Positions 25,341 through 51,188 of a stretch of DNA of 64,000 nucleotides are shown here, one piece after another. How positions within the stretch are numbered: the first letter of the stretch is position 1; every line of letters starts with the position of its first letter. The stretch spans positions 45,933-109,932 of the forward strand of contig CAJARJ010000018.1 of assembly GCA_903944345.1 (NCBI GenBank), in the 5' to 3' direction. Source of the stretch: Candidatus Omnitrophota bacterium. Lineage in GTDB: Bacteria; Omnitrophota; Gorgyraeia; Zapsychrales; Fredricksoniimonadaceae. The notes under the pieces were generated by a model that was not told the DNA's origin, did not search any database, and was given only the letters and a program-made list of their open reading frames with translations. The position numbers and the translations under genes are program-made.

Positions 25341-26713
25341 TTTTTATACCCCAGAGCTGTCAGATTATGGGGAGCGAGCACCTTGTCAACCAGCTCACCG
25401 CCCAGACGTTCCGTCAGAAAAACCCTTAAATCCGCGCGCCCGCAGGAATCAAACTCTTTTAACAGATCCCTGGCTTTCTCGTAACCGATAGCCGGAACAA
25501 ACGCGGTTACAATCATCCGGCTCCGGTCGAAATATTCCCGGCACCCGGAAGCATTGGCCTCTATCTGATCCACATGACGGGCAAGAATACGGCTGGCATT
25601 GATCAAAAGCTCCAGTGAATCAAGCAGAGCCCCCGCCAGAAGCGGAAGAAATTCATTGATCTGGAAACTCCCCCGCGAAGCGCTTTCGGTAACAAGAAAG
25701 TCATTGGCCATGACCTGCAGTCCGGCCTGGATAACCGCCTCGGGAATGACCGGATTAACCTTACCCGGCATGATCGAGGAACCGGCCTGCAAAGCCGCAA
25801 GGCGCAACTCCCCCAAATAATTAAGGTGGCGCAAATCATTGCCTATTTTGACCAGATTGGATGCCAGCGCCTTGAGAATTCCGGACACTTCGACAAAAAC
25901 ATCTGCGTTAGCCGTTTCTCCGGCGGGAAGCTCTCCGCGCGACAAGCCAAACCCGGTCAGGGCACGCAATTTCTCGATAACCAGAAAAATATATTCACGC
26001 GGAGCACCCAGTCCGGTTCCGATAGCCGTCCCCCCAAGATTGACAACCCGAAGACGTTCCTCGCATTTGAACGTACGCCAGCGGTCTCTGGCAAACGCTT
26101 CTGCCCAGACCGCACATTCCAGCCCGAGTGTCATGGGCACGGCATCCTGCAACTCAGTCCTTCCAATCTTGACAATCGAAGCAAACTCATTTTCCTTGCG
26201 CTGGAATGCCCCCTGCAAAAGAGCGACCGACTCGCTCAACAGTCTTAACTGTCCAATGGCCGCAACCTTGAGCGCTGTCGGATAAACATCGTTCGTTGAC
26301 TGATGCAGATTGACATGTTCCAAAGGATGAATCCTGTCGTAAGCCCCGCGAGAAAAGCCAGAGAGCTCCAGTGCGCGGTTGGCCAGAACTTCGTTCATAT
26401 TCATATTCGTCGATGTGCCTGCGCCTCCCTGCAAAAGGTCAACCGGAAACTGATCGGCAAGCGCCCCTTCAGCCACTTCCCGGCAGGCGCCAACAATCAC
26501 CCCGGCCTTATCTGCAGGCAGAAAGCCCAGATCAGCATTAGCCTCGGCACAGGCCTGCTTGACCTGGGCCATTGCCATAATAAGCACCCGCGGCACCTTG
26601 CGGGCAGAAAGCGGAAAGTTCTCCAGCGCGCGCAGGGTATGAATTCCCCAATACACTTGCGCGGGGACATCCCGCTCTCCCAGCGAATCTTTTTCACGAC
26701 GAACAGAATCCAT
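25337..26713 (-). CDS. aspA: Aspartate ammonia-lyase (fumarate lyase superfamily) embedded in the hyd cluster
   Basis: GSSIMPGKVNP fumarate-lyase signature. N-terminus MDSVRREKDSLGERDVPAQVYWGIHTLRALENF resembles AspA. Confidence 0.75.
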   Translation of the reverse strand: MDSVRREKDSLGERDVPAQVYWGIHTLRALENFPLSARKVPRVLIMAMAQVKQACAEANADLGFLPADKAGVIVGACREVAEGALADQFPVDLLQGGAGTSTNMNMNEVLANRALELSGFSRGAYDRIHPLEHVNLHQSTNDVYPTALKVAAIGQLRLLSESVALLQGAFQRKENEFASIVKIGRTELQDAVPMTLGLECAVWAEAFARDRWRTFKCEERLRVVNLGGTAIGTGLGAPREYIFLVIEKLRALTGFGLSRGELPAGETANADVFVEVSGILKALASNLVKIGNDLRHLNYLGELRLAALQAGSSIMPGKVNPVIPEAVIQAGLQVMANDFLVTESASRGSFQINEFLPLLAGALLDSLELLINASRILARHVDQIEANASGCREYFDRSRMIVTAFVPAIGYEKARDLLKEFDSCGRADLRVFLTERLGGELVDKVLAPHNLTALGYKK

Positions 26714-27096: not shown

Positions 27097-28857
27097 TTAC
27101 TTGTTATACAAGGGCCGTGATACATACGTTGTGTGCAAAAGCTCATGCGCCTTATGACTCAACGGCTTCTCCAGAAAATCCTTGTACAACTGCTGTACAT
27201 ACGGATTGTGATGCGAACAACGCACCGTCATAGCCGAATCTTCGTCATAAAGCCCCTTGGCGCGCTGCTGACGGATTTCATCGGTCACCATGTAAGGCTG
27301 TCCGCCGCCGCCCACACACCCGCCGGGGCAAGCCATAACTTCAATAAAGTGATACGGCACAGGCTGTTTCTTCTCGATCGCCTCGCGCACCTTGTTCATG
27401 ACATGCTTGACATTGGCCAGGCCATGCGCCACCGCAATCTTGACCTCGGTTCCCTTGATATTGACCGTCGTCTCCTTGACCCCCTCCAAACCGCGCACAG
27501 CGTAGAAATTAACATCCGCCAGATCTTCTCCGGTCACATTAAAGTAAGCCGTACGCAGAGCCGCTTCCATAACACCTCCGGTTGCGCCGAAAATTGTTCC
27601 GGCACCGGCATAATCACCCAGAATCGAATCCGCCTCTTCATCGGGCAAAGAGTTAAAATCGATGCCGGCGTGTTTGAGCATACGGATCAATTCGCGGGTG
27701 GTCAAAGATATATCCACATCCTGGTATCCGGAAGCGAACATATCCTTTGTGCGGCCAATCTCATACTTCTTGGCGGTACAAGGCATGACCGAAACAACAA
27801 CTATTTTGGAAGGATCTATATTCTGCTTGCCGGCATAGTAGGTCTTGGCCAGAACGCCAACCATTTCGTGAGGGCTCTTGGCAGAAGAAAAATGCTGGAT
27901 CATGTCGCCATAATACTTTTCAAGATAATCCACCCAGGCCGGACAGCAACTGGTAATAAGAGGCAATGCCCCCTTGCCATGGGCAAAGCGCTCCACAAAT
28001 TCGCCGGCTTCTTCAAGAATGGTCAAATCCGCACCGAAGTTGGTATCAAAAACCGCCTTGAACCCCAGGCGACGGAAGGCAGCATAAAGCTTTCTGGTCA
28101 GATTTGTTCCGACCGGATAACCAAAACCCTCCCCGACCGCCACACGAACCGCAGGCGCGACCTGAACCACCACAACCTTCTCCGGGTCCTGCAATGCATC
28201 CCATACCTTGCGGGTATCATCATGCTCAAAAATCGCACCTGTCGGACAATGCGCCGAGCACTGCCCGCAACGCACACAGGGAGAATCCGCCAGCTTGATG
28301 TCGCCGGCAGGAGCCATGCGCGTATTAAAACCGCGATCCATGAAAGAAAGAGCCCAAACATCCTGTACGTTCTGGCAAGCATCAATACAACGCCCGCACT
28401 TGATACATTTTTTGGGTTCCAGAATAAGGGTTCCGGTCGACTTGTCTGCCGGAATTTCCGGGACAATACGCTCAAAACGATCTTCACGAATACCAAATTC
28501 GGCGGCCAGTTTCTGCAATTCGCAATCATTGTTGCGTCCACAAATCAGGCAGTCCGTAGGGTGATTGGATAAAATCAGCTCCAGAACAGTCAGACGGGTC
28601 TGGACGATCTCGGAATCATGAGTGGTGACTTCCATCTTGTCTTCCAGGGGCGTACAACAGGCCCGCAGGAGTTTACGATTCCCCTTGACCTTGACAATGC
28701 AGATGCCACAGCCCGCCGAAGCAGTCAAATCGGGATGCTTGCATAAGGTCGGAATCTTGACCTGCACCAGCTTGGCGGCTTCCAGGATGGTTGTTCCATA
28801 AGCAACTTCCACCGGCTTGCCGTTAATGAGCGCTTTAACCATAGTAACGGTAGACAT
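27097..28857 (-). CDS. hndD: [FeFe] hydrogenase catalytic subunit (HndD/HydA; NuoG-like N-terminus + H-cluster domain)
   Basis: N-terminal 2Fe-2S and 4Fe-4S Cys motifs. H-cluster signatures TSCCPAWV, MPCTAKKYE and EVMACPGGCVGGGGQP. Start refined to 28857 (MSTVTMVKALINGKPVEV). Confidence 0.9.
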   Translation of the reverse strand: MSTVTMVKALINGKPVEVAYGTTILEAAKLVQVKIPTLCKHPDLTASAGCGICIVKVKGNRKLLRACCTPLEDKMEVTTHDSEIVQTRLTVLELILSNHPTDCLICGRNNDCELQKLAAEFGIREDRFERIVPEIPADKSTGTLILEPKKCIKCGRCIDACQNVQDVWALSFMDRGFNTRMAPAGDIKLADSPCVRCGQCSAHCPTGAIFEHDDTRKVWDALQDPEKVVVVQVAPAVRVAVGEGFGYPVGTNLTRKLYAAFRRLGFKAVFDTNFGADLTILEEAGEFVERFAHGKGALPLITSCCPAWVDYLEKYYGDMIQHFSSAKSPHEMVGVLAKTYYAGKQNIDPSKIVVVSVMPCTAKKYEIGRTKDMFASGYQDVDISLTTRELIRMLKHAGIDFNSLPDEEADSILGDYAGAGTIFGATGGVMEAALRTAYFNVTGEDLADVNFYAVRGLEGVKETTVNIKGTEVKIAVAHGLANVKHVMNKVREAIEKKQPVPYHFIEVMACPGGCVGGGGQPYMVTDEIRQQRAKGLYDEDSAMTVRCSHHNPYVQQLYKDFLEKPLSHKAHELLHTTYVSRPLYNK

Positions 28858-28870
28858 GAATAGCTCCTTG

Positions 28871-30604
28871 TTATTGACGAGAAACTGCAGTGAACTTGCA
28901 AACGTCAAAGCACTGCCCGCAGCTGATACACTTTACGGCATCGATCGTATACTTGTCCTGCCGGCTTCCGGAAATCGCATCCGCCGGGCAAACCCGGGCG
29001 CACATGCCACAGCCGGTGCATTTCTCCCGGGTGATCCGGTAAGAAACCAGGCTGGAACACTTGCCCGCAGGGCACTTGTGATCGATAACGTGCGCGCGAT
29101 ATTCGGACATGAAATACTTCAACGTCGACAAAACAGGATTGGGAGCTGTCTGCCCCAACCCGCACAAGGATGCTTTCTGCATGGCCTGGGCGATCTGTGA
29201 AAGACGGGCGAGATCCTCTTCCTCCGCCTTGCCGTGAGAAATCTTTTTAAGAATAGCCAGCATCTGGGTGCCTCCCACGCGGCAAGGAGCGCATTTCCCG
29301 CAAGACTCATCCACACAGAAGCCAAGATAAAACTTGGAAATATCCACCGCGCAATCGTTCTCGTCGAGTACAATCATGCCGCCGGAGCCCATGATAGACC
29401 CCAGTTTCTGGAGGCTTTCATAGCCCACCGGCGTGTCAAAAAACTGTTCAGGAATAACGCCGCCAGAAGGCCCCCCGGTTTGTATGGCCTTGATGGCGCG
29501 ATTGTCCAGAACCCCGCCGCCGATCTCGAACACGATGTCCCTTAAAGAAATGCCCATCGGAACCTCAACCAGGCCGGAATTGCGTACCTTGCCGGTCAGC
29601 GCGAAAACCTTGGTCCCGGTCGAACCCTCTACCCCGATCTTTCCGAAAGCTTCCCCGCCCTTGCAAAGAATATAGGAAACATTCGCCAGAGTCTCGACGT
29701 TGTTGATAACCGTCGGATTGCCCCACAATCCCTTGACCGAGGGAAAAGGCGGACGCGGACGCGGATAACCCCGTAAACCCTCGACGGAAGCAATAAGGGC
29801 CGTTTCTTCTCCGCACACAAAAGCGCCGGCTCCCAGACGGATTTCAATGTCAAAACTGAAAGAAGAGCCGAGGATATTTTTCCCCAGCAGTCCCCTGGAA
29901 TAACAAATATCAATCCCCTTCTGGATGCGCTCGACAGCCAGAGGATATTCGGCACGAATGTAGAAAAAACCCTTGGTGGCACCGATCGCAATCGCCCCGA
30001 TCATCATGCCTTCGATAACAGAATGCGGATCCCCTTCAAGAACCGAACGGTCCATGTATGCCCCGGGGTCGCCTTCGTCACCGTTACAGATGATGTATTT
30101 CTCGTTCCCCTGGACACCCCGGGTGATGTTCCACTTCATCCAGGTCGGGAAGCCCGCGCCACCACGTCCGCGTAAACCCGACTTCTTCATTTCCTCAACA
30201 ACTTTCTCCGGCCCCAATTCAAGCGCCCGGGCCAGCCCCTGATAGCCGTCATGGGCTATGTAATCTTCAAGGCTCTCCGGATCTATAACACCGCAATTGC
30301 GCAAAACAATTCGCATTTGACCAACGGAACCCTCACGGGCGATACCAGCGACTTGCTCGCCCTTAAGCAGGGTTTTCTCAATAATCTCGGGAATATGCTT
30401 CTGTTCAAGATTGACGTAAGTAAACCCTTCCGGCAAAACCTTGAGCGCTATCCCGCGGTTGTAAACCCCGATATCCGCCGCCATAAGCGTCTGAACTTCA
30501 GAGGACAACCCGCGATCACGCAGCTGACTGTTTAAGGACACCAGAAATTCCCGGGTCTCTTTCTTCAATTTTCCGTTTGTGTCCTGAATAAGAACTCTTT
30601 TCAT
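28871..30604 (-). CDS. hndC: NAD(P)-binding flavoprotein subunit of the hydrogenase (HndC/HydB, NuoF-like with extra Fe-S domains)
   Basis: GLRGRGGAGFPTWMKW FMN/NADH site, NuoF 4Fe-4S motif, and C-terminal 2x[4Fe-4S] ferredoxin CxxCxxCxxxCP motifs. Confidence 0.9.
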   Translation of the reverse strand: MKRVLIQDTNGKLKKETREFLVSLNSQLRDRGLSSEVQTLMAADIGVYNRGIALKVLPEGFTYVNLEQKHIPEIIEKTLLKGEQVAGIAREGSVGQMRIVLRNCGVIDPESLEDYIAHDGYQGLARALELGPEKVVEEMKKSGLRGRGGAGFPTWMKWNITRGVQGNEKYIICNGDEGDPGAYMDRSVLEGDPHSVIEGMMIGAIAIGATKGFFYIRAEYPLAVERIQKGIDICYSRGLLGKNILGSSFSFDIEIRLGAGAFVCGEETALIASVEGLRGYPRPRPPFPSVKGLWGNPTVINNVETLANVSYILCKGGEAFGKIGVEGSTGTKVFALTGKVRNSGLVEVPMGISLRDIVFEIGGGVLDNRAIKAIQTGGPSGGVIPEQFFDTPVGYESLQKLGSIMGSGGMIVLDENDCAVDISKFYLGFCVDESCGKCAPCRVGGTQMLAILKKISHGKAEEEDLARLSQIAQAMQKASLCGLGQTAPNPVLSTLKYFMSEYRAHVIDHKCPAGKCSSLVSYRITREKCTGCGMCARVCPADAISGSRQDKYTIDAVKCISCGQCFDVCKFTAVSRQ

Positions 30605-34189: not shown

Positions 34190-36331
34190 TCAAGGAAGCG
34201 CTTTTTTACCGCAACACCAACGATCTTGCCGGATAAAGGCCGTCATAAGCCCCAATTGCAGTAACGCACAAAACACCAGCGTGTCCGAACTCCCCCACAA
34301 AGGAACAAGCACAACCCCTCCCAAAACAAGCCCCAAAACCGATCCAAGAACATCTGCGGCATACAATTTTCCCGGCACAGCTCTCGAAGAAACCGCGACA
34401 GCAAATTGCCCCCCGCTGACAGCCCCTGCGCAAAACGAAAGAAGAAAAAGCCCGGACAGCGAAAACCAGCCAGCTCCGCAAACCGCCAGAAACGGCAAAA
34501 CAGCCGCTCCCGTAAACGACACCGCTGAAGCCAAGGCCAACATCTTCCACGACACCAGACTTTTTCGGTTCTCCGCCAGCCAGGCACCGGCACAAACACC
34601 TGCCAGAAAAACAGCCGTTATCAACCCGAACCAGGAATAGACATACCCGAACAATGCCTGAAAGAGAATCAACACCGACGACTTGATAATCATCAGTTGA
34701 AAACCCCCGGCTGTTGCCGTTACCAAGGGAAGTCTGAACCCGGACTTCAATCCGGGAAAAAATACAAAAAGAACCAGACACCACAACAGCAGCAAACCGT
34801 GCTCGGCCATCTGCATAAAGCGGGCAAACAAAGAATTAAAATGTGTCGACCAGAAAGACAACGAAGAGGCAAAAAGTACAGGACGAAGATCCTGATTAAT
34901 TTCTCCGGGGACAGCAAGCATTCGCTCCAATCCCCCCAGACGCAGACGGTCAAAACGCTCATCCCAGTATCCAGGCTTGACCCAGGATGTTTCAAGACCA
35001 CGCTCCCGCAGCCTTCTTTCAAGTACCCGAGGATCCAGGCTAACAGTTCCAGGCGAGCGCACCCCCAGAAACAAGGTTCTAGCCCCCGGAAGGAATCTGA
35101 CTTCTGGAAAAACCGCCTTCAAAGTGGCAAACAAAGACCGCAGAACTCGACGGCATTCCTCATTGATATAGTTTTCGGCTGAAGTCATGGTCAAGGCCAA
35201 AACTCCCCCCTCAGCCAGAGCCAGAGCGGCCTCTTCAAAGAATTCCCTGGTGTAGAAACGATTCTGCAAAAGCGTTAAAGGATCACCGGCATCCACAATA
35301 ATCACATCATACAATCCCCGGACTCGCTTCAGGTAAGCCCGGCCGTCCGTACGGAAGACCCGGAGACGAGGATTTTGTAAAACTTGCCTAACCAAAGGCA
35401 TTTCACGGGCCAGCAAAGCCACAGTTTGAATATCCATCTCGGTACAGTCAACAGCCATACCTGGATGCTTTAACGCTTCCCGTTCTCTTCCCGCCGCCAG
35501 CGTCCCGCCAAGAATAAGCAGCCGTTTTGGATCGGGATGAGCAAGCAAAGCATAATGCACGATCTCTTCCGCAGAGGCCGCATCTCCTGCCGAAGCAGAA
35601 AACCGGCCATCTTCAAAGAAACTCAAACTGCCATTACGCTCCAAAAGAAGGCTGCGACCATAAACCGTGTCTTTTTCTGCAACGATTCTAAAGCCTTTCC
35701 AGGAAGCTGCTCGAATAATAAAAGCTGTTTTTTCTCCAAGGCCAGCCAGAAAAAAGAACAACATCGCACCGCCAAGCGCAATTTTAAAAACCAGGACTCC
35801 CTCGCCTTTAAAATAAATAATCAAAGCAGGAAGACAGACCAATACCACAATATCCCAGCTGCGCATAAAGGGAAAGAAAAGAAACGTCGCCCCCACTCCG
35901 GCAAGAAAAAAACCCAGCGCTTCCTGCGCATACAAAGACATGACGCGCCCTTTAGCCTCTCTGGTCAAGGCTGAGAAAATTGCACCAAAAACAATGCTGG
36001 CGGGCAATACCAAAAAGAACGCAACCAAAACACTGATCAGTGGATCCGGGATCTGTCCAGGCACAAGCCCAAGACCCAAACGCACTGCAGAGGCCGCCAG
36101 CGCTATCAGCGGCGCCAGAACAGACACCAGCCCAAAAAGCAATGAAGCGGAACTTTTTAACCAGATACTGCCGCAAGCTATCCCCGCCATCCAGCCAGCA
36201 AGGCACAGCATATACACCAACTCATTGCCGCCGAAAGCGGCCATAAGTTCCCGCAAAACAAACAGCTGCAACAGGCATGAACAAAACCCCAGACAGAAAG
36301 CTTGTATCAACATCGCAGGGATCCTCATCAA
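34190..36331 (-). CDS. Spermidine-synthase-like (PABS domain) protein fused between N- and C-terminal polytopic membrane domains
   Basis: 713 aa. Central domain has an aminopropyltransferase-like fold (RLLILGGTLAAG..., VIIVDAGDPLTLLQNRFYTREFF). The Gly-rich dcSAM motif is degenerate (no GGGDG Asp). Confidence 0.55.
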   Translation of the reverse strand: MMRIPAMLIQAFCLGFCSCLLQLFVLRELMAAFGGNELVYMLCLAGWMAGIACGSIWLKSSASLLFGLVSVLAPLIALAASAVRLGLGLVPGQIPDPLISVLVAFFLVLPASIVFGAIFSALTREAKGRVMSLYAQEALGFFLAGVGATFLFFPFMRSWDIVVLVCLPALIIYFKGEGVLVFKIALGGAMLFFFLAGLGEKTAFIIRAASWKGFRIVAEKDTVYGRSLLLERNGSLSFFEDGRFSASAGDAASAEEIVHYALLAHPDPKRLLILGGTLAAGREREALKHPGMAVDCTEMDIQTVALLAREMPLVRQVLQNPRLRVFRTDGRAYLKRVRGLYDVIIVDAGDPLTLLQNRFYTREFFEEAALALAEGGVLALTMTSAENYINEECRRVLRSLFATLKAVFPEVRFLPGARTLFLGVRSPGTVSLDPRVLERRLRERGLETSWVKPGYWDERFDRLRLGGLERMLAVPGEINQDLRPVLFASSLSFWSTHFNSLFARFMQMAEHGLLLLWCLVLFVFFPGLKSGFRLPLVTATAGGFQLMIIKSSVLILFQALFGYVYSWFGLITAVFLAGVCAGAWLAENRKSLVSWKMLALASAVSFTGAAVLPFLAVCGAGWFSLSGLFLLSFCAGAVSGGQFAVAVSSRAVPGKLYAADVLGSVLGLVLGGVVLVPLWGSSDTLVFCALLQLGLMTAFIRQDRWCCGKKALP

Positions 36332-36349
36332 TAGCGGTCAAACACATCC

Positions 36350-36389
36350 GTAAAAACAAAGAGCGCAGGCTATAAATCTGCCTGCGCTC
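36350..36389 (-). terminator. Rho-independent terminator downstream of the TM-helix protein gene
   Basis: GAGCGCAGGC-tataaatct-GCCTGCGCTC is a perfect 10-bp stem, followed on the minus strand by TTTGTTTTT. Confidence 0.55.
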
Positions 36390-36411
36390 TTTAAACAAAT
36401 CATTCTAAGGT

Positions 36412-37092
36412 TTACTTGCCAATATTCTGCTTATTATAAAAATCCCAAAGAATCTTGGCGGCCAGATCTTTACCACCCAAACCAAAAGCAAGCCCCAGCG
36501 CAAGACAAAAAGCCGCAAAAAAGATCTGAAACGTCGTGCTGACAAAAAATGTAGAAATTCTCAACTGCTCAAATGTCATGACCGTTGTAAACAACAGAAT
36601 CGCTATCTTGGCAATCGAACCCAGCAACTCGGCACGCGAAACGTCAATATTTGAAGCTGCAGCCTTGATAATACTGTAAATAAGATTGGCAAAAAACATA
36701 CCGATCAAAGCCACAAAAACCGCGGCAATAACATTCGGAATAAACCCGGTGACTCTTTCCAGAAGGTGCGCCGCGACAACCAGCCCCATCGAATCAACCA
36801 CGACAGTAAACACCAGCAGCATCATCGCCCAATACACGAGGCCAGCCAGCAAAGAAGACGCCGAGAGCATCACTCCGCCCTTGGTGAGCATTGCAGAAAA
36901 CCCGATCTTGTCGGAAAAAGAATTAAACTTGACCTGATCAAGTAGTTTCTGTGCAAAACCGCTGAAAACTTTGGCAATAATCCAACCGAAAAGAAGGATC
37001 AGAAGCGCGCCAAATAGCTGGGGAACAAAAGCCCCAAGTTTGTTGAGCATCGTTACAATCGGCTCGATAAAAAGAATATCAATCCCCGCCAT
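36412..37092 (-). CDS. Small polytopic membrane protein (conserved TM-helix repeat, MscS-N-terminal-like)
   Basis: 226 aa made of about 5 hydrophobic helices with internal repeats. No catalytic motif. Confidence 0.4.
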   Translation of the reverse strand: MAGIDILFIEPIVTMLNKLGAFVPQLFGALLILLFGWIIAKVFSGFAQKLLDQVKFNSFSDKIGFSAMLTKGGVMLSASSLLAGLVYWAMMLLVFTVVVDSMGLVVAAHLLERVTGFIPNVIAAVFVALIGMFFANLIYSIIKAAASNIDVSRAELLGSIAKIAILLFTTVMTFEQLRISTFFVSTTFQIFFAAFCLALGLAFGLGGKDLAAKILWDFYNKQNIGK

Positions 37093-37249
37093 ATTTTCTC
37101 CTTTATTTAGAATTTTTCAACGCAAGTTGATTACACTCTACATGAATTTGTAAGTTATGAAAATAATTTTTCATCTTTTTTAACTCGTTATCCTATAGAC
37201 AGATCGAGTCAAAATTATACCCGCAGAAGGCCCCGGCAGGCCGGAGCCA

Positions 37250-39079
37250 TCAATAGGGTGTCTTGAGTCGCCACCATTCGGAGAAGTCCGGAAGTAGCGG
37301 TCGAAAAATGGAGTTAACCAGCCGCGAATTTTTCCGTGCAATCAACTGGTTACCAGCAAGCAGTGCCGCCCTGACCCGGGAGGAGTTGACAATATCCGGC
37401 GTAACACCCTGACCATAAAACATATCCGGGGTACCTGCACCTTGCGCACGAGCCAGAATGAAACCGGAAGAAAGATTCTGCAAAAAATCCCGCAACATTT
37501 CCCTGGCAACGGCCTCGCCGCCTCTGATCTGCATAGAACTTGTTTGTCCGGTCAACATGTTGGTGTCGGTCCGGGTTATGATATCAACACCCGTGTAAAG
37601 TTTTCGAAACAATGCCAGCGCCCGGGGATTATCATCCTCAAGCGCGGAAAAGAATGGCCGAATATCCCCAAAACCGGCAGCAAACAAGGTGTTATAGAGA
37701 ATATCCCATGTCCGAGTATCTTTGCCTGGCTCCTCCTGCCGGGGGATCTGCTCAAGCCCGGGAACATCCATAACCAGAAAGCCTTCGGCCGAAAGCCGCG
37801 CCCGCGCCATGGCATAAAACTCACGCGAATAAAGGCGGCTAAGGTTGTAATCGCTTGGAGCCGGAAAATCCAGATAAATGGCATCAAAGAACTCGCGTGA
37901 CTGGCGTACATAATAAAAAGCATCGTCAATAACCACCTGCACCCGGGGATCCTCAAAAGCCCCTTGGGTCAAAGAGCCCGGCCCGGAAGCGGAACGGAAC
38001 AAGTCAACCACCTTCCTGTCGATCTCAACTAAAATGATCTTGCGGACGGAAGAATACTTGAGCAATTCCCGAATCAGAAGGCCGTCACCGCCCCCCAGAA
38101 CAAGAACAGACTCCGGAACACGAACCGAGATTGCCATAGGAACATGCGCAAAGAATTCATGGTAAAATTTCTCAACATCAGAAAGAAACTGAAAATCATG
38201 CCCAAGATACAAAGCTAACCCGTGCGGACGAACCTTCCTGCCAGCTTTGCCGTTACTATAAATATCCAGCAAGTCATCCGGATAACCGGCGGCCGAGCGA
38301 ATACTCACCAAATCAATAGACTGATACGGACTGCGAACCCGCTGCACTTGCGCCAGAAAGGCACTCTCATCAGGAAGGGCATAAAAGCGGCGCAAGAAAT
38401 ACTGTTCAAATCTTCCGGCGCCGGCAAGCGTCAAAAAAATCAGAATCGCTGCCAGAGCAGACCAAAGTAGCTGCCCCGCCCCCCTGACCGGTTTGACCCA
38501 CCACAAAACAACGGCAGCCATAAGATTAACGACAGCAATTAATCCGGCAATCTGCAATAACCCGAACCTAGGCAACAAAAACAGCGGGAAAATCAATCCT
38601 GCGGACAGCGAGCCCAGATAATCCATGCCCAGAACCCGAACCAGAAGATTTCTGCCAGGAACCGCCTCCACAGCCATATCCAGAAGAAGAGGCAATTCGA
38701 TCCCCGCCAAAAAACCGACGGCAGACGAAAGCACAAGCGCGCTGAAAAAAAACAGGACGTCCGCAGCAATAACCTGATCCCCGGACAAAAAGGACAAAGC
38801 GCCCGACTGGGCTGCATGCAGAAGAAGAACAGATCCTCCTCCCACCAGGCTCAAAACAATTTCCACCCGAAATAGCCTGAGTTCCAGCGGAGCGTTTTTG
38901 AAAAATCTTCCGCCTGACCAGGCCCCTGCCCCCATGCTCCCGACAAAAACCCCCACCGCCAGACTCACCCAAACCAGCTGGTTAGCCGTAAAAACCGCAA
39001 CCGTCTGGGCAAGCACCAGCTCATAAACAAGCGCACACGCCGCCAGGACAAACGACAAAAGATATATAACAAACATCAT
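37250..39079 (-). CDS. Membrane-fused spermidine-synthase-like aminopropyltransferase (N-terminal about 7-TM domain + PABS domain + C-terminal soluble domain)
   Basis: VLVLGGGDGLLIRELLKY (dcSAM-binding GGGDG), VEID, and IYLDFPAPSDYNLSRLYSREFY (the DSSDP-equivalent). Translationally coupled to speH (ATGA overlap). Confidence 0.65.
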   Translation of the reverse strand: MMFVIYLLSFVLAACALVYELVLAQTVAVFTANQLVWVSLAVGVFVGSMGAGAWSGGRFFKNAPLELRLFRVEIVLSLVGGGSVLLLHAAQSGALSFLSGDQVIAADVLFFFSALVLSSAVGFLAGIELPLLLDMAVEAVPGRNLLVRVLGMDYLGSLSAGLIFPLFLLPRFGLLQIAGLIAVVNLMAAVVLWWVKPVRGAGQLLWSALAAILIFLTLAGAGRFEQYFLRRFYALPDESAFLAQVQRVRSPYQSIDLVSIRSAAGYPDDLLDIYSNGKAGRKVRPHGLALYLGHDFQFLSDVEKFYHEFFAHVPMAISVRVPESVLVLGGGDGLLIRELLKYSSVRKIILVEIDRKVVDLFRSASGPGSLTQGAFEDPRVQVVIDDAFYYVRQSREFFDAIYLDFPAPSDYNLSRLYSREFYAMARARLSAEGFLVMDVPGLEQIPRQEEPGKDTRTWDILYNTLFAAGFGDIRPFFSALEDDNPRALALFRKLYTGVDIITRTDTNMLTGQTSSMQIRGGEAVAREMLRDFLQNLSSGFILARAQGAGTPDMFYGQGVTPDIVNSSRVRAALLAGNQLIARKNSRLVNSIFRPLLPDFSEWWRLKTPY

Positions 39080-39435
39080 TCGTCAAAGCCCCTGGACATC
39101 ACACTAACCTCTGCTTTACGGGCCAAAAGCCCCTGCTTAAGAAAATCAATCGCCCTCTCGGGAAACATGGTTCCGCAGGTCAAAACATCAAAAGCCGCAT
39201 AACCGTCCTGGGGCCATGTATGAATAGAGAAATGTGATTCAGCAATAAAAATCATCGCACTGACACCCTGCGGCTCAAACTGATGGAAATGGGATCCAAG
39301 AATAGTGGCGCCGCTGTCACGGGCGGCCTGCAGAAAAAGAGGACGCAAAACTTCAACCCTGGCCAGGGGCTCCGGATCACAACCGGTAAACTCGACAAGA
39401 TAGTGTCTGCCAAATTCATGTTTTCTGGATTTCAT
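39076..39435 (-). CDS. speH: S-adenosylmethionine decarboxylase proenzyme, class 1b (SpeH)
   Basis: 119 aa with the FIAESHFSIHTWPQDGYAAFDVLTCG self-processing site (ES/H). Confidence 0.8.
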   Translation of the reverse strand: MKSRKHEFGRHYLVEFTGCDPEPLARVEVLRPLFLQAARDSGATILGSHFHQFEPQGVSAMIFIAESHFSIHTWPQDGYAAFDVLTCGTMFPERAIDFLKQGLLARKAEVSVMSRGFDE

Positions 39436-40244
39436 AACGCCTCTTCATGAAGATATAAACGAACACAGACCTCCTGGATTCGCCCGGACCAAGCCAGCCC
39501 GGCCAACGTCAGAAGCAGCAGCAGTGCCGCGCCACGCAAATACACTCTCGCCTTAACCCCGAACTCAGGTCGCCAAACCAGAACCAGAAAAAGCGCCCCC
39601 GCCGCATTGCACGTTGCGACCGCCATCAGAGAAGGCACAAGTCCGGATAAAGGATAAAGACAGAAAACATATAACAAAGTTCCGGCAAAAGCCCCGAGAT
39701 AATCAAAAGCGATCAGCCGGTTACGATCGGACTTTAAATCACTTGCGCCCAATGCAAGAAGCAGCGGCAACTCAAACCCGGTCAGAAAACCAATCAAAAC
39801 AACAAGCATGTGCGCCCAAAACAAAAGAAATCCGGATGGAAAATTCAACGCATCCAGAAGAAAAAGACCCGGAACAGCCGAAACACCAAACAAAATCAGC
39901 AATGTTTCAACCTTAAACAGAAGCCGCCAGGGTCTTTTGACAACATAACGTTCAGCCGCAAAAGCCCCTACACCCATAAAACACATATAGAGACCGATTG
40001 TCACGCTGTAACGCAGAACGGTATTGGCAAAAAACGCGGAAAGAACCTGGGCCAGCAACAACTCGTAAGCCATACTGCATAACGCCAGAACAAACTTGAG
40101 AAAAAGCAATGGCCGGAGCCGTCCTGCGGTTAAACCTGCAGAATCGACTCCGGCCTTATATGGCGTCTGCCGGAAAATCAAGCTTTCTCCTGAATCACCC
40201 GCATCAGCTGCCGGGCCGCTTCTTCCGGACCCTTTCTCTCCCAA
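39432..40244 (-). CDS. Polytopic membrane protein paralogous to the N-terminal TM domain of the SpeE-like fusions
   Basis: YELLLAQVLSAFFANTVLRYSVTIGLYMCFMGVGAF parallels the 609-aa protein's YELVLAQTVAVFTANQLVWVSLAVGVFVGSMGAGAW. 4-nt overlap with speH. Confidence 0.5.
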   Translation of the reverse strand: MGEKGSGRSGPAADAGDSGESLIFRQTPYKAGVDSAGLTAGRLRPLLFLKFVLALCSMAYELLLAQVLSAFFANTVLRYSVTIGLYMCFMGVGAFAAERYVVKRPWRLLFKVETLLILFGVSAVPGLFLLDALNFPSGFLLFWAHMLVVLIGFLTGFELPLLLALGASDLKSDRNRLIAFDYLGAFAGTLLYVFCLYPLSGLVPSLMAVATCNAAGALFLVLVWRPEFGVKARVYLRGAALLLLLTLAGLAWSGRIQEVCVRLYLHEEAL

Positions 40245-41926
40245 CCGGCCAGTCCCAGACGAGTACGCATCTGACCGACATAAACTCCCTGCCTGAAGAA
40301 GTGCTCAAAATAATCTTTCGCCAAAGGATCGTGCAAATGCTTGTACTGGGCAGGACCAAAAACATTGGAGAAATAAGAATGCACCAGCCCCGTCGCCGTA
40401 GTTGTGCCCTTGCTCATGGCGGTGCCTTCACGAAAAACGTTAAGCGCAGCCTCCGGTGTCTTGAAGCGCTCGACAATCGGATGATCGTCATCAGTGGCAT
40501 CATAATTATTTGCATAAAAAACAAAATCAATCTTCTCACCCTTGATAACCTGCTGATACGAGGTAACCGGAATAATGATCCTGGCATTCACCTGATTGGC
40601 CGACATGATAATCGCACGGTCAATCTGGCCGAGCGCATATCCAGGCTGCAAATCGTCGAGGCGCAGAAACGCCCCGATCTCGGTGCCGTAACCCAGCACC
40701 CGCCCGTCGGGGGCAAGCTGGATCGAACCCATGTCATCCGCAACAATAATCAGATCCTGGATATGATCCTCACCCAGTCCGCGCAAAGCCTCAAGCGTTT
40801 CAGACTTTCCGGCACCGGTATCTCCGATAAAAAGCAACGTACGGTCGATATCCCCTTTCAGAATAATCCGTACCAGCGCGCCATGAAAGGGCATAATCCC
40901 GCGCTTCATCATGATAACGTTATGCAGGGTCAGGACCATCTTTTTGACATATCCGAAATAACCGAACTCGGGACGAAACGGAACCGCACCAACAAGGAGA
41001 TTATTCTTTTCGTCATCAAAGAAAACCTGTTCACAGTTAAAGCGTGCCAGGCTCTCGGGAGGAACTCCGTAGGCATACACACCATCCGGTTGACGCTCCA
41101 GATCCTCGTCTCCGGCAATCTCGAAAAGATTGCATAAAGAATGACCCAGCTCGGCAAAACGGTTATGAAAATAAACCATAATCAGCAGCTCTCCGACTTT
41201 GGCCGGATAACAAAGCCAGTCGTTAGAGTCGAAGCTCAGCCCCTTGATCGGGCTCTCATTAACCCTCTCGGCACGACCAGTCCGCTTGTTCATCGGTGGC
41301 GTCAGAATGAGCGGAGGGTACAAGAGCATCTGCCGGATCATGGGCACATTGTTCAATTCGGCATACTCCTGCGGCAGCTTAACCTCCCTGGGTACCGATA
41401 TGGTGGACACCTCGGCTCCCGCCGCAACCTGACGATAAATACGAGGGTGCTGTCCGGTTACATTCTCCTGGATGTCCCGATACATCTGACGAATAAGATT
41501 AGTCAACTGACCAATCGTCTCGTTAAATGTGCGATACGGGCGCTTGTCCCAGTTCTTGTCCTGCCCGCCGGAAATGATAAAACGGTCAAAACTGCGCCAA
41601 AAATTGTAAATACTTTCGATCAACTCATTAAACAATGTGGGATCCTGCAGAAAGACATCCGATCCTTTCACAATATTAGGAACCAGACTGGCCGGCATCT
41701 TGGTCAGATACTTGATAGTCTGGATAAGCCGGTCGATATCTCCTGTGTCGGCATCTTTCTTGCCGAAGACCTGCATCAGAATAGAACGACGTTTGGCCAG
41801 TTTGCCAACGGCAGCAGTTACAATTCCCTTGAAAAGCTCGCTATCGATAATCTCTTCTTCGGTCTCACAAATCCTGTTCTGGATACGCAGAATAATTTTC
41901 GTATCGTATATGTCATAAGACTGCAT
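40178..41926 (-). CDS. Uncharacterised 582-aa protein with an HPr kinase/phosphorylase-like P-loop domain
   Basis: HGALVRIILKGDIDRTLLFIGDTGAGKSETLEALRGLGEDHIQDLIIVADD (aa about 348-398) closely mirrors the HprK/P Walker-A region (GDSGVGKSETALELI..GH.LVADD). The N-terminal about 330 aa are unassigned. Confidence 0.6.
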   Translation of the reverse strand: MQSYDIYDTKIILRIQNRICETEEEIIDSELFKGIVTAAVGKLAKRRSILMQVFGKKDADTGDIDRLIQTIKYLTKMPASLVPNIVKGSDVFLQDPTLFNELIESIYNFWRSFDRFIISGGQDKNWDKRPYRTFNETIGQLTNLIRQMYRDIQENVTGQHPRIYRQVAAGAEVSTISVPREVKLPQEYAELNNVPMIRQMLLYPPLILTPPMNKRTGRAERVNESPIKGLSFDSNDWLCYPAKVGELLIMVYFHNRFAELGHSLCNLFEIAGDEDLERQPDGVYAYGVPPESLARFNCEQVFFDDEKNNLLVGAVPFRPEFGYFGYVKKMVLTLHNVIMMKRGIMPFHGALVRIILKGDIDRTLLFIGDTGAGKSETLEALRGLGEDHIQDLIIVADDMGSIQLAPDGRVLGYGTEIGAFLRLDDLQPGYALGQIDRAIIMSANQVNARIIIPVTSYQQVIKGEKIDFVFYANNYDATDDDHPIVERFKTPEAALNVFREGTAMSKGTTTATGLVHSYFSNVFGPAQYKHLHDPLAKDYFEHFFRQGVYVGQMRTRLGLAGWERKGPEEAARQLMRVIQEKA

Positions 41927-41950
41927 TTAACACCTTCCTCCTGTTGTTTT

Positions 41951-42607
41951 TCAGTGCGCAAACTTCTTGTGAAGCCATATTCTGTCAACGGCCCGCTTGA
42001 ATGCCATATTGATCGGGAGCATTTCCCGCGATAAATCCGGATCAATACTGCTCAATCTCAAAACATAATCGGACATAAAAACGGGCTTATCCTCAGTGCC
42101 TTCCGGCTTCTGAATGCCCGGCGCTGCCAACGGCAAAATTTTATCCTTTAGAACAGAACAGGACGCCAGCCGAAAATGTCCATGCCGGTCCCGATTTCCG
42201 GAAAAACCGAACAGCCGGCAAATCAGCGGACGCGAAGCATACTGCAAACACTTGCCTTGCCCCGAGGACCCTGCCTCAGGAAAAAAGAAAATGCACCGTC
42301 CCTGAAAATCCTGCTTGTCGGCTTTTTCGTAAAAGCCCTCGGCCTGCCGAAGACGATCAAGCTGCGATGCCAAAGGAAGCAGCTCAAGCTCGGAAGCCTG
42401 AACATGCGGATTCTGACAGCAAACCCCGCAACCCACAGGACAGGAAAAGGCCAAACTGCGCCTGAACGCTCCCGTATCCCGGTCTACGTCAAGAAACAAA
42501 TACTGCACCGCAATAATCTTGCGGCGCAAAACATCCCCATGGGAAGTTCTGTATCGCTCCAACAACAAAAGGCAACGCTTTTTCCAGCGGGCTAAAGTTG
42601 TTTGCAT
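41951..42607 (-). CDS. YkgJ/UPF0153 family Cys-cluster (putative Zn/Fe-S binding) protein
   Basis: CPVGCGVCCQNPHV (CxxCxxCC), plus a second Cys cluster. Ends 25 nt before the HprK-like gene. Confidence 0.7.
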   Translation of the reverse strand: MQTTLARWKKRCLLLLERYRTSHGDVLRRKIIAVQYLFLDVDRDTGAFRRSLAFSCPVGCGVCCQNPHVQASELELLPLASQLDRLRQAEGFYEKADKQDFQGRCIFFFPEAGSSGQGKCLQYASRPLICRLFGFSGNRDRHGHFRLASCSVLKDKILPLAAPGIQKPEGTEDKPVFMSDYVLRLSSIDPDLSREMLPINMAFKRAVDRIWLHKKFAH

Positions 42608-42734
42608 AACTCCCCCTCTGCTTCGTCTCTCGTCTTATCTTAGCAATTATACGGTACGCCGCAAGAATAATCTGGAATCCACCCGGGGAAACTCAGCGGA
42701 ACCACAGACATCGACGAGAAAGCAACCCGACAGG

Positions 42735-44510
42735 CTAACGGACGGCCCCGGGATTATTTAATGTATTACGGACTTCCCGCTCAAACTCAAAAGGCGAAAG
42801 CCGGCGGGCCTCACGATAGAAATCCAGGGATTTATCTCTTTGCCCCATAACAGCATAAATCTGTCCCAGACTGAAATAATTAATGTAATTAAGCGGTGAA
42901 CGGCGAACCGCCTCCTCAAACGAAGCGGCACTTCCCGCAAGAAAATCTGCCCGGCCATTTTCCTTCCAGGAATTCGCAAGTACAATACCCGCTGCAGCCG
43001 GATAAACACAGGACCAGGGGTTCAGGCGGGAAGCCTGAACAAAAAGATGTCCGGCCCTGGCCAAATCACCTCCTGCTCGCGCGACCTTGCCTTCCATATA
43101 CAAAAAGAAAGAAACCGACAAACAAACACTCAGGAACAATAAAACCCCCGCCAAAACTCCGGCAAAAACAAAGAACAAGCGCTGCCAACCTTTTGTCCAC
43201 AATCTTCCGGATGAGGGACGACTCATAGCTGCCAGAGCCGCCAGCATGGCCCAGCCATGCCAGGCAATATTGGGTTTAATAAAAGTGAAGCTAAAAAAAT
43301 TATCAATCAGAAATGCCGTCAACCCCCAAATCAGCCCGACAACAAGCCAGGCATCCGCGCCATCCCTGTAAAGCGCTAATGCCCGACGAGATGCAGCAAT
43401 AAACGCAGCTACCAAAGCCAATATGCCGACAAGGCCCAAAACCCCTGTTTCCACCAGCCATTGCAAATAGGTATTATGCACGAAAGCTGTTAGCGCCTCC
43501 TGCGAAGTCACCAGATGGCGCGAAGCCATGCCAAACGCGCCAAAGCCGCATCCTCGCAATGGATGCTCGGCAATCAGAGTCGCGGCATTCTGATAATATA
43601 AAAGGCGCGGTTGCAAGGCCGCGCCAAAATCCTTACGCGCCACAACCCAGGCAAAAGCCACCAGAAAAAGAAGTACGAAAAGAATCAACCCCGTAGTCTG
43701 GATGGAGGACAGGCTTCCTCTCATTCTCCGGTAAACAAGCGAAACCAGCAAACAGGCGGACAACAGAAAACTGCTCCAGGCCAGAAAAGAAAAAGTGGCC
43801 AGAAAGCCAGTCAGCAAAACAGCCGCGAAGCTTCCCCAGAAAATACGACGCCACCAACCTTTCGCTGCCACCGCATAAATACCACCCAGGGGAAGAAACA
43901 GCAAAAGATAACCCGCCAACGAATTAGGCCAACCCAGCAAAGAAGTGGCCCGGCGGCGAGTCAACACATAATGCAAACTGGAATTAAAATCCTGGAGCAG
44001 TGCGTCAGACGGCAGCGGCTGACGCAGAAAGAGCAAAACAAACTCCCGCACGGCAAAAGCCGCCGTCACCAAAGCACAAAGGAGCATGCCGATAACAAAA
44101 ATCCTGATACGACACGGGCTGTCCAGCAGGTCGGAAAGCATAAAGAAAAAAAACAACACCGACCCGAAAACCACCGCAGAAATAACACTCACCGAACGAT
44201 CGACGCTATAAAAAACGGATAAGACCACCGCAAAAAACAACAAAGATAATGGAAAAAAGAATCCGGAACGAACCCATACTTCCCTGCTAAAGAATTTATA
44301 AAACAGATAGCCAATAAAAAGCAGACAAGATAACCCGGCGACAATCAAATTCGAAAGTTCTTCCCGAACAAAGATTTCCGCATGCGGGAAGAACTTCCAG
44401 ATTGTCAAACGCAGAATAACCAGACTCAGGGCCGCATACAAAAAGACATCTTTCCAACCAAACAACCTTGCGGTAATGGCGGAAAGCGTTCTCTCATACT
44501 CACACTTCAT
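42735..44510 (-). CDS. O-antigen ligase (Wzy_C/WaaL) family membrane protein with a C-terminal TPR domain
   Basis: About 10 TM helices. HNTYLQWLVETGVLGL Wzy_C motif. C-terminal about 150 aa are TPR-like. Confidence 0.7.
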   Translation of the reverse strand: MKCEYERTLSAITARLFGWKDVFLYAALSLVILRLTIWKFFPHAEIFVREELSNLIVAGLSCLLFIGYLFYKFFSREVWVRSGFFFPLSLLFFAVVLSVFYSVDRSVSVISAVVFGSVLFFFFMLSDLLDSPCRIRIFVIGMLLCALVTAAFAVREFVLLFLRQPLPSDALLQDFNSSLHYVLTRRRATSLLGWPNSLAGYLLLFLPLGGIYAVAAKGWWRRIFWGSFAAVLLTGFLATFSFLAWSSFLLSACLLVSLVYRRMRGSLSSIQTTGLILFVLLFLVAFAWVVARKDFGAALQPRLLYYQNAATLIAEHPLRGCGFGAFGMASRHLVTSQEALTAFVHNTYLQWLVETGVLGLVGILALVAAFIAASRRALALYRDGADAWLVVGLIWGLTAFLIDNFFSFTFIKPNIAWHGWAMLAALAAMSRPSSGRLWTKGWQRLFFVFAGVLAGVLLFLSVCLSVSFFLYMEGKVARAGGDLARAGHLFVQASRLNPWSCVYPAAAGIVLANSWKENGRADFLAGSAASFEEAVRRSPLNYINYFSLGQIYAVMGQRDKSLDFYREARRLSPFEFEREVRNTLNNPGAVR

Positions 44511-49652: not shown

Positions 49653-51188
49653 TCAGACCGCTCCGGCATTCCCTGTTACAATATATTCGACCGGATTGTA
49701 ACTGTCCGTGAAAACTGGACTCCCTTCCAGACTATAATCTTGCGGCGGCACCCGGGTAGCAAGCAATGCCTGAAGGCCGCCGGGGGGTTCTATGCGGAGA
49801 AAATCATCATAAGTTCCCATGCGCATACCAGCCACAATAATAATATTCTGCAAATCCCCGGGATTCTGTCGATTGGTGGCGTAAACATCAACTCGCCCGA
49901 AAACCTCAGACAGAGTTCGGGTTATGGCGCGAAAGAATCGCGCTCTGTCTCCTTCAATGGCACTAATAATATTCATCATGTAAATACCATCCGGAGTCAA
50001 TCTCTGGCGTACCAGATCAAAAAACTCTTTTGTGACCAGATGAAACGGAACATTGTGCTTGCCATGGAAAACATCTCCAAAAACAAGATCATACTGGCCG
50101 TTATCTGAACGCAAATAGCGCCGCGCATCTTCTGCAGCAATCTTCATATGCGGATAGTCCCCGGTACGAAAAAAAATCTTGCCTGCTTCGATCACCTGCG
50201 GATCAATCTCGCAGACCTCCACTTGGGCACCGGGATAAGCCCGGCTCAACGCCTGCGGCATGGTAAAAGCGCCTCCACCAAGAAAAAGTGCCCTTTGCAT
50301 CCGCGGACAATAAAGCCGACTCAATTCCCAGTACCGGTTATACACCAGCGGACTTTCGGGCGAATGCTCGAAGCGCGCCCCCGCTGTAGAATTATCCGTA
50401 TTAATTGTCGTCACAAAATCTCCATTAGCCAGTTCCGGCCCCCGGAACACAACTATGCGGTGAAAGAATGTGATCTTGTGAAAGAGAATATGCCACGGCA
50501 TTGGCGGATTTTTCCTGGCAACCCATCCTGCCAGGAGCAAGGCAAGAAATATAACCGCCACAGGCACCGCCAGGTTCAGTGGTTTTCTAAGAGCGACTCC
50601 ATAAACCGCTGCTGCCATGCACGCCAGGACAATCCCGCTTCCCAAAAAGATCGTCCACAAATCAAAACGTGGAATAAGCAGAAAGCCGGTGGCAAAAGTC
50701 CCGGCGACACTCCCCAGCATGGAAAGCGTACCCACTATCCCGGATGATATTCCAACATGCCGATCCGCGGACAATAAACTGACCAGGCGCACACAAAAAG
50801 GAGGCACCGCACCGAGAAGAAAGCCAGGCAAAGCAAAAAACATACCTGCCGCCACAGCAGGACCCCAAACAGCACTGGTTCCAGACAAAAAAAGATCAGC
50901 AGAAAGATGCAAAAAAGGAACTATCAGAACAAAAACAGCCGCCAACCCAAGAATATGCCCCAGCAAAACAGGGGTGGGCTTGCGGTCAACCAGCCATCCA
51001 CCGTAACAATAACCTGCACTCATCGCAGTCAGAATGACTCCGATCAGTCCGGTCCAGGTATAGAGACTATTGCCAAAAACAGGAGCCAGAATGCGGTTAC
51101 CCGTCAACTCAATGACCATAACAATCGCCCCAGAGAAAAAGGCAATCACAGACAATAAAAGAGCTTCCGTCCAGGCTGAACTTTTCAT
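49653..51188 (-). CDS. Membrane-fused spermidine-synthase-like protein (third paralog; N-terminal about 7-TM + PABS-like domain)
   Basis: ALFLGGGAFTMP...VEVCEID...YDLVFGDVF...HLVTKEFF is a diverged aminopropyltransferase-like domain following a polytopic TM domain. Confidence 0.55.
   Translation of the reverse strand: MKSSAWTEALLLSVIAFFSGAIVMVIELTGNRILAPVFGNSLYTWTGLIGVILTAMSAGYCYGGWLVDRKPTPVLLGHILGLAAVFVLIVPFLHLSADLFLSGTSAVWGPAVAAGMFFALPGFLLGAVPPFCVRLVSLLSADRHVGISSGIVGTLSMLGSVAGTFATGFLLIPRFDLWTIFLGSGIVLACMAAAVYGVALRKPLNLAVPVAVIFLALLLAGWVARKNPPMPWHILFHKITFFHRIVVFRGPELANGDFVTTINTDNSTAGARFEHSPESPLVYNRYWELSRLYCPRMQRALFLGGGAFTMPQALSRAYPGAQVEVCEIDPQVIEAGKIFFRTGDYPHMKIAAEDARRYLRSDNGQYDLVFGDVFHGKHNVPFHLVTKEFFDLVRQRLTPDGIYMMNIISAIEGDRARFFRAITRTLSEVFGRVDVYATNRQNPGDLQNIIIVAGMRMGTYDDFLRIEPPGGLQALLATRVPPQDYSLEGSPVFTDSYNPVEYIVTGNAGAV

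Follow-up and report, generated by a model that had tools for sequence, protein, structure and literature searches.

A soluble Omnitrophota protein with a predicted PEP carboxykinase fold represents a large, inconsistently annotated family of the PEPCK/HprK superfamily

Phosphoenolpyruvate carboxykinases (PEPCKs), which interconvert oxaloacetate and phosphoenolpyruvate (PEP) and occur as ATP-, GTP- and pyrophosphate (PPi)-dependent classes, share a P-loop superfamily with the HPr kinase/phosphorylases (HprK/P; PF07475), which join a core of about 170 amino acids to a MurE/F-like N-terminal domain and act on the protein HPr. HprK-like kinases of lasso-peptide and other ribosomally synthesised and post-translationally modified peptide (RiPP) clusters belong to the same superfamily and are used outside catabolite control. 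DUF4914 (PF16260, about 610-650 amino acids) is probably another dark branch of it; no mention of DUF4914 was found in the literature searched. Here, we describe a 582-amino-acid protein (the target) encoded on the minus strand at positions 40178-41926 of a 64,000-nucleotide stretch of Candidatus Omnitrophota contig CAJARJ010000018.1 (the window), together with the family to which it belongs. An earlier note on this DNA had read the target as an HprK/P-like Walker-A domain in an otherwise unassignable protein. Its predicted fold and conserved motifs instead describe a soluble member of the PEPCK/HprK superfamily, in which a complete two-domain PEPCK architecture (residues 166-582) would follow a family-specific helical domain (residues 1-165).

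An AlphaFold2 model of the target built from 120 homologues is confident (mean predicted local distance difference test (pLDDT) 82.7, predicted template modelling score (pTM) 0.82), and Foldseek matched it to dozens of PEPCK entries (E 3e-12 to 1e-9, probability 1.00). The aligned length exceeds the nucleotide domain of about 260 residues, so the PEPCK N-terminal domain is partly matched as well. Both domains of the PEPCK fold are found in the target, and residues 166-582 (about 415 residues) are predicted to form the PEPCK N-terminal domain followed by the PEPCK nucleotide domain. The best structural matches are PEPCKs and not HprK/P, the family that the earlier note had proposed, and the HprK/P arrangement of a MurE/F-like N-terminal domain with a catalytic domain of about 170 residues was not found. 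Full-length homologues align with the target from residues 1-4 through to the C-terminal end; many distant homologues and the Limosilactobacillus fermentum protein align only from about residue 90-100, and the mean top-residue frequency in the diverse alignment is 0.31 for residues 1-95 against 0.56 for the C-terminal domain. The N-terminal domain has weak similarity to globins (Z <=6.3), and the haem-ligand histidine is not conserved. The pLDDT falls below 50 in three segments, two of which (440-452 and 507-512) carry invariant residues (N447/R449 and the K506-G-T-T-T loop), a pattern expected of mobile catalytic lids, which these loops of the model probably are. The maximum Kyte-Doolittle value over 19-residue windows is 1.16 and there is no hydrophobic segment, so the protein is soluble, in contrast to its membrane-type neighbours.

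By the standards of profile hidden Markov models the family is dark, since all of its profile matches are sub-threshold. Scans of the target against Pfam and NCBIfam gave no match above cut-off; Pfam returned only PEPCK_ATP (E 0.003, 16.8 bits against 26.5, residues 322-378) and NCBIfam only PEPCK models (best E 1.1e-5, 24.3 bits against a cut-off of 369, PRK09344). The top phmmer match among PDB sequences is the ATP-PEPCK of Thermus thermophilus, which is not significant (E 0.015) and sets YFGYVKKMVLTLHNVIMMKRGIMPFHGA...GDTGAGKS of the target opposite ...GLSGTGKT. Profile searches of PDB sequences with two family alignments found nothing significant, and the target matched neither Hpr_kinase_C (PF07475) at E<0.01 nor DUF4914 at E<=1. 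When 38 diverse members (25-48% identity) were scanned singly, all matches were likewise sub-threshold: PEPCK_ATP in 26 (best 8.6e-6), DUF4914, which is of comparable length, around the P-loop in 17 (best 5.6e-4), and Hpr_kinase_C in six (best 7.7e-5). The L. fermentum homologue scored 17.7 bits against 806 in NCBIfam, 23.9 against 26.5 for PEPCK_ATP and 13.8 against 25.7 for DUF4914. PPi-PEPCK gave no sequence-level match in any search, and the large lobes that make it roughly twice as long (1126 amino acids) are absent from the target. The earlier statement that some 480 residues outside the P-loop region match nothing is thus correct for simple searches of Pfam, NCBIfam and PDB sequences, and fails at the level of the fold. 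Judged by these comparisons, the family lies between the known branches of the PEPCK/HprK superfamily, closest to PEPCK.

The Walker-A and VADD stretch that had first drawn attention to residues 348-398 is real: positions 40733-40885 (minus strand) translate exactly to HGALVRIILKGDIDRTLLFIGDTGAGKSETLEALRGLGEDHIQDLIIVADD. The motif GDTGAGKS (residues 368-375) was also read correctly, and only its end, given before as 40828, lay one codon too far (Table 1). Residues G368, D369, G371, G373, K374, S375, E376, D397 and D398 are invariant in the 120 homologues (59-98% identity) and kept in 32-38 of the 38 diverse members, a degree of conservation that marks the Walker-A as more than a chance P-loop. 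Alignment of the diverse family profile with Escherichia coli PckA by hhalign (E 2.4e-5, 240 columns) paired residues 261-519 with PckA 145-412; a relaxed run with two canonical Omnitrophota PEPCKs added reached the C-terminus, and was without confidence before residue ~248. The PEPCK-specific Y323...K329 motif was paired with PEPCK by phmmer (the T. thermophilus enzyme), by Pfam PEPCK_ATP and by hhalign, and among the diverse members Y323 and K328 are each kept in 37 and K329 in 31. Both hhalign runs pair NARvviP with NTRVSYP (N in 34, R in 33 and P in 36 of 38). On topological grounds (P-loop, helix, strand, DD), the acidic pair D397-D398 would correspond to PckA D268-D269; in hhalign the pair is offset by six residues, as the helix that follows the P-loop exceeds its PckA counterpart by eight.

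Because of this longer helix (GKSET-LEAL), the region resembles HprK/P, and the HprK/P sequence of a GxSGxGKSE P-loop followed by helix, strand and ADD is present in the target (GDTGAGKSETLEALRGLGEDHIQDLIIVADD, residues 368-398) and invariant in the family. A protein serine kinase/phosphorylase of HprK/P type, using ATP or PPi on a regulatory protein with the globin-like N-terminal domain as sensor, is nevertheless improbable, since the target has no Hpr_kinase_C match and lacks both the HprK N-terminal domain and a conserved partner gene, its globin similarity is weak and lacks the conserved haem ligand, and it carries a conserved PEPCK N-terminal domain, YxGxxKK motif and PEPCK C-terminal subdomain. 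HprK/P is not known to have either that N-terminal domain or that motif. Membership of HprK/P was rejected on the unmatched Hpr_kinase_C profile and the PEPCK fold, and on both profile and model evidence the target would not be an HprK/P-type protein kinase. The HprK-specific interpretation is therefore given up, the region falling by profile search in the PEPCK-like P-loop family that the earlier note had itself named as the alternative. RiPP-associated HprK-like kinases are short HprK-type proteins encoded beside precursor and maturation genes, whereas the target has a PEPCK-like architecture and no RiPP context.

At E<=1e-3, 6,017 proteins were retrieved by a word-indexed search; when representatives at 50% identity were searched exhaustively, 584 clusters matched at E<=1e-3 and 146 at E<=1e-30. 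With one genome taken per species, at least 589 species hold confirmed relatives; the full-length architecture, whose distribution the earlier note had left to a phyletic survey, is widespread across many phyla, and its spread looks vertical. Among the matches listed, full-length identities of 54-75% occur in Omnitrophota, Bacteroidales/Rikenellaceae, Sporomusaceae (Propionispora, Pelosinus), Chloroflexota, Spirochaetota, Actinomycetota, Neomarinimicrobiota, Atrimonadaceae, Thermodesulfobacteriota and others, and more distant members (36-40%) in Limosilactobacillus (fermentum, vaginalis, panis, antri and others), Ilyobacter polytropus, Anaerococcus, Thermotogota and Bipolaricaulota. The best 120 of the 6,017 are 580-600 amino acids long, have no Pfam domain on record, and are named 'phosphoenolpyruvate carboxykinase', 'hypothetical protein' or 'EcfA2'. 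Orthologues from cultured organisms include L. fermentum AYP99509.1, Ilyobacter polytropus WP_013387115.1 and Propionispora WP_054260471.1. In RefSeq the Propionispora protein is labelled hypothetical and the Ilyobacter protein PEPCK, a name also carried by Limosilactobacillus and Anaerococcus records; as the L. fermentum protein scores below the cut-offs, the name has no support from any curated model above threshold. The IMG name 'energy-coupling factor transporter ATP-binding protein EcfA2' stands on six JGI/IMG records (P0004, P0010, P0272, P0281, P0394 and P0479), and is evidently a mis-annotation from the P-loop alone that is spreading through metagenome records. Full-text literature searches on PEPCK-like and HprK proteins, Omnitrophota, DUF4914 and Limosilactobacillus/Lactobacillus PEPCK found no characterisation of the family, and no connection with it could be established for the 'PEP carboxykinase-like protein' that a paper on a heliobacterial genome mentions. 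It is a large and highly conserved family with a distinctive extra domain, inconsistent annotation and neither a characterised member nor a profile model, in a superfamily whose chemistry is already known.

As to function, we incline slightly towards a PEPCK-type small-molecule phosphotransferase, with roughly half of that confidence going to the genuine oxaloacetate/PEP reaction. In such an enzyme, an NTP (probably ATP) with Mg2+ would bind the P-loop at K374/S375, and K329, H348 and D398, as counterparts of the PckA Mn2+ ligands K213, H232 and D269, would hold a second divalent cation (Mn2+ in PEPCKs). The gamma-phosphate would be moved to or from a small anionic carboxylate or enolate metabolite, oxaloacetate/PEP or a close analogue being the leading candidates, that Y323, R449 and probably R215 would position beneath the mobile loops 440-452 and 505-512. 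The N-terminal domain, through R111, R115, R150 and R165, might make extra substrate contacts or serve as a regulatory module. A non-catalytic nucleotide-binding or regulatory protein that merely retains the PEPCK scaffold is very unlikely, as the catalytic residues are invariant or nearly so across phyla in the target and the bulk of the family, a pattern that indicates selection for catalysis.

Several observations weigh against the phosphotransferase assignment. Identity to PckA (PF01293, EC 4.1.1.49) is just 13-16%, with all profile scores below curated cut-offs; the family has an extra helical N-terminal domain of about 165 amino acids that PckA lacks; and the local P-loop/helix/ADD sequence, with its longer helix, is nearer HprK/P. 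The oxaloacetate-binding Arg65 of PckA has no reliably placed counterpart, hhalign being without confidence in the N-terminal domain; the order of secondary-structure elements suggests the N213-K214-R215-T-G217 loop as a candidate, and this loop is lost together with the P-loop and DD pair in three degenerate paralogues. Many invariant family motifs (GTEIGAFLRLDDLQPGYA, YANNY and the N-terminal-domain arginines) are not matched by anything in PEPCK, and the substrate may therefore differ considerably. Finally, canonical PckA coexists with the family, which argues against a plain PEPCK function: tblastn with E. coli PckA found full-length ATP-PEPCKs (58% identity over about 540 residues) in two loci of close relatives (L004:5721-7358 and L005:5684-7327, both plus strand), each preceding the target homologue by two genes in the one-strand order pckA, CxxCxxCC protein, target. 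A third locus has a pckA fragmented over three reading frames (L017:12-1403), either a pseudogene or the product of long-read indel errors, and no pckA was found within the 64-kb window. The family is therefore not simply the PEPCK of these organisms and is expected to depart from PckA in its substrate, its phosphoryl donor or its regulation; it is a deep PckA paralogue that may act at the same metabolic node.

A divergent but genuine PEPCK (OAA + NTP <-> PEP + CO2 + NDP, where OAA is oxaloacetate), a second isoenzyme in Omnitrophota and possibly the sole one in, for example, Limosilactobacillus, is a tentative reading that draws on the conservation of all mappable PEPCK catalytic and metal residues, the two-domain fold, the stand-alone housekeeping-type gene in fermentative anaerobes, the adjacency to pckA in L004/L005, and the name given in Limosilactobacillus, Ilyobacter and Anaerococcus. 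Those names rest on 15-24 bits against NCBIfam cut-offs of 369-806 and are countered by the RefSeq label in Propionispora; the pckA on the same contig in close relatives, the extra conserved domain and the non-PEPCK invariant motifs suggest another substrate, Arg65 has no placed counterpart, and no enzymology was found in the literature. Held with similarly limited confidence is a fourth widespread PEPCK-fold class beside the ATP-, GTP- and PPi-PEPCKs, with a sensor-like, non-haem globin-like N-terminal domain and a reaction other than oxaloacetate/PEP interconversion, whose novelty could lie in the acceptor (for example a different 2-oxo, beta-keto or hydroxy acid) or in the phosphoryl donor.

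Three further observations hint weakly at the oxaloacetate/aspartate node. In two Spirochaetota loci (L073:6886-11241 and the corresponding part of L076), the target homologue comes after a PurC-like (SAICAR-synthetase-like) gene and before genes for a PadR regulator and an aspartate aminotransferase. The metagenomic protein P0173 (646 amino acids) joins a family fragment (query 311-527) to a SAICAR_synt domain, either as a genuine fusion or through an artefact of gene calling, and the window holds a Lyase_1 aspartase/fumarase (25337-26713, minus strand).

Distant paralogues include two further groups. In P0237, P0248, P0254 and P0255 (27-35% identity, 574-673 amino acids), the strand/P-loop/helix unit is absent from its canonical position (a gap at query 360-385) and V(G/A)DSRTGKSE is found at the extreme C-terminus, with NKR, YFGY.KK, LTLHN, ADDM, GTE.GAF, N[AS]R and Y.NN[YF] retained; on sequence, this looks like a natural, circular-permutation-like relocation of the Walker-A unit in a PEPCK-fold protein. 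P0186, P0207 and P0229, two of them from Rickettsiales metagenome-assembled genomes, have degenerate P-loops (GDSSSGKHE, GDVYSGKYE and GDTYSGKFF), have lost the DD pair and the NKR loop, and are probably catalytically dead. Assignment of the distant paralogues of about 640-670 amino acids to DUF4914 was rejected, as they have no DUF4914 match.

The target gene is a complete open reading frame (ORF) of 582 codons plus stop in the ORF list, with an AGGAGGA Shine-Dalgarno sequence about 10 nt 5' of the ATG and 24 nt separating it from the stop of the upstream gene, and belongs to a single same-strand string of genes from 34190 to 44510 (Table 1). A kinase acting together with SpeD and the membrane spermidine-synthase-like proteins encoded beside it, for instance by phosphorylating a polyamine or a component of the membrane cluster, would explain its place beside a SpeE-type membrane module, SpeD and a membrane SpeE fusion, an arrangement that recurs in loci L003, L004 and L005. 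These loci hold homologues that are 71-73% identical and among the closest relatives, hence shared ancestry accounts for the recurrence. When ORFs were called and clustered in 80 loci from different species, speD/speE flanked the target homologue in L003-L005 only, being absent from that position in L001 and L002 (74-75% identity) and not clustered beside the homologue in any of the other 75 loci. No neighbour conserved across phyla was found, and there is no conserved operon. Bacteroidales show a lineage synteny with housekeeping genes (YqgE, holA, nucleoside phosphorylase and a fused 2-oxoacid dehydrogenase E1), in one Omnitrophota subgroup a flavodoxin-like reductase lies upstream of the gene and GH57 downstream, and other neighbours include TrpB-like, short-chain dehydrogenase/reductase (SDR), iron-dependent alcohol dehydrogenase (Fe-ADH) and PurC-like/aspartate aminotransferase genes; the Limosilactobacillus gene is monocistronic, with 4HBT thioesterase and LysM genes in divergent orientation on either side. 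Lacking context conservation beyond L003-L005, the polyamine neighbourhood is local synteny and not a functional module: the polyamine genes probably lie beside the target without shared function, the functional tie was rejected as highly implausible, and the earlier setting of an HprK-type kinase in a polyamine/membrane cluster falls with it.

Association with mobile elements or defence was also rejected, the phage, viral, plasmid and PADLOC searches giving nothing meaningful: the phage genome collection held no match, viral contigs one fragment at a contig end, the PADLOC models only trivial P-loop noise, and the single 'plasmid' match, from L. fermentum DR9, appears to lie in an ordinary chromosomal-type context. 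Promoter and terminator scans around the target found nothing beyond shuffled expectation, and no riboswitch or leader was found 5' of target homologues in eight loci (Firmicutes and other phyla). A c-di-GMP-I riboswitch (74 bits; L026:9883-9967, plus strand) in a 1.1-kb gap downstream of the Pelosinus homologue presumably governs the next gene and not the target family.

Table 1. Coordinates in the window of the target gene, the genes around it and the features of its protein; fractions are counts among the 38 diverse members
Feature	Positions	Strand	Remarks
O-antigen-ligase/tetratricopeptide repeat (TPR) protein	42735-44510	-	
CxxCxxCC (YkgJ-like) protein	41951-42607	-	
Target	40178-41926	-	
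Membrane module, 270 aa	39432-40244	-	Match confined to the membrane N-terminal half of PRK03612 spermidine synthase
SpeD	39076-39435	-	
Membrane-fused spermidine synthase	37250-39079	-	
Protein with conserved transmembrane-helix domain of mechanosensitive channels	36412-37092	-	
Membrane spermidine-synthase-like protein	34190-36331	-	
Residues 1-95, beta-hairpin and first helices of N-terminal domain	41642-41926	-	Most variable part
Residues 96-165, conserved part of family-specific helical N-terminal domain	41432-41641	-	Y107, W110, R111, R115, Y149-R150, Y164-R165-Q166
Residues 166-320, beta-rich region resembling PEPCK N-terminal domain	40967-41431	-	
Conserved loop N213-K214-R215-T-G217	41276-41290	-	Within residues 166-320
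Residues 321-582, PEPCK-type nucleotide-binding (P-loop) domain	40181-40966	-	
Y323-F-G-Y-V-K328-K329, PEPCK-specific motif	40940-40960	-	PckA Y207-G-G-E-M-K212-K213
H348, equivalent of PEPCK Mn2+ ligand His232 and HprK/P 'HG' histidine	40883-40885	-	phmmer GIMPFHGA / GVFPMHAS; 33/38
G368-D-T-G-A-G-K374-S375, Walker-A / kinase-1a P-loop	40802-40825	-	PckA G248...K254-T255; K374 36/38, S375 35/38
D397-D398, kinase-2 acidic pair	40733-40738	-	Putatively PckA D268-D269; HprK/P 'ADD'; 35/38 each
N447-A-R449, then P453	40580-40588	-	PckA N331-T-R333...P337, substrate/phosphate-binding Arg; low-confidence, probably mobile loop
S505-K506-G-T-T-T510, conserved Gly/Thr-rich loop	40397-40414	-	Probable mobile lid with low pLDDT; paired with PckA 'TAKLAGTE'
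F498..K506-G-T-T			Pairs with PckA FLSGFTAKLAGTE; K506 30/38
F519-x-N-x-F-G524-P			Pairs with PckA FSACFGA; N521 38/38, G524 34/38

Genes with a Spermine_synth domain are unusually dense in the window (34190-36331, 37250-39079 and 49653-51188, all minus strand), two of the three having clearly hydrophobic N-terminal regions, and the called TTG start of the membrane module overlaps the 3' end of the target by 67 nt and is probably over-extended. Two antisense ORFs within or over the target gene (40109-41137, 342 amino acids, and 41141-42034, 297 amino acids, both plus strand) are shadow ORFs and not genes, because the minus-strand gene is kept in thousands of homologues. GC skew is negative in every 2-kb bin of 1-64000 (-0.06 to -0.22), and almost every long ORF is encoded on the minus strand; the genes are strongly co-oriented, and the window appears to belong to a single replichore. 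Elsewhere on the minus strand are an [FeFe]-hydrogenase large subunit with a NuoF-like partner (27097-30604), a HydF maturase (23469-24716) and a radical-SAM/BATS protein (21926-23494) whose domains suggest a HydG- or HydE-like protein; from its gene content, the source organism looks like a fermentative, H2-producing anaerobe.

These results remove the idea of an HprK-type regulator inside a polyamine cluster and draw attention to a family of more than 6,000 database proteins in at least 589 species, including cultivable or food-relevant organisms such as L. fermentum, Ilyobacter polytropus, Propionispora and Anaerococcus, whose contradictory labels ('phosphoenolpyruvate carboxykinase', 'hypothetical protein', 'EcfA2') are not backed by any above-threshold model. 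If its members are real PEPCKs, metabolic reconstructions that omit the family miss a link between PEP and oxaloacetate. If they are not, reconstructions that trust the label hold a false link, and a strongly conserved reaction is still to be found. Should the family prove to be a fourth PEPCK-fold class, it would supply a step that is so far unassigned in the central metabolism of anaerobes and heterofermentative lactobacilli.

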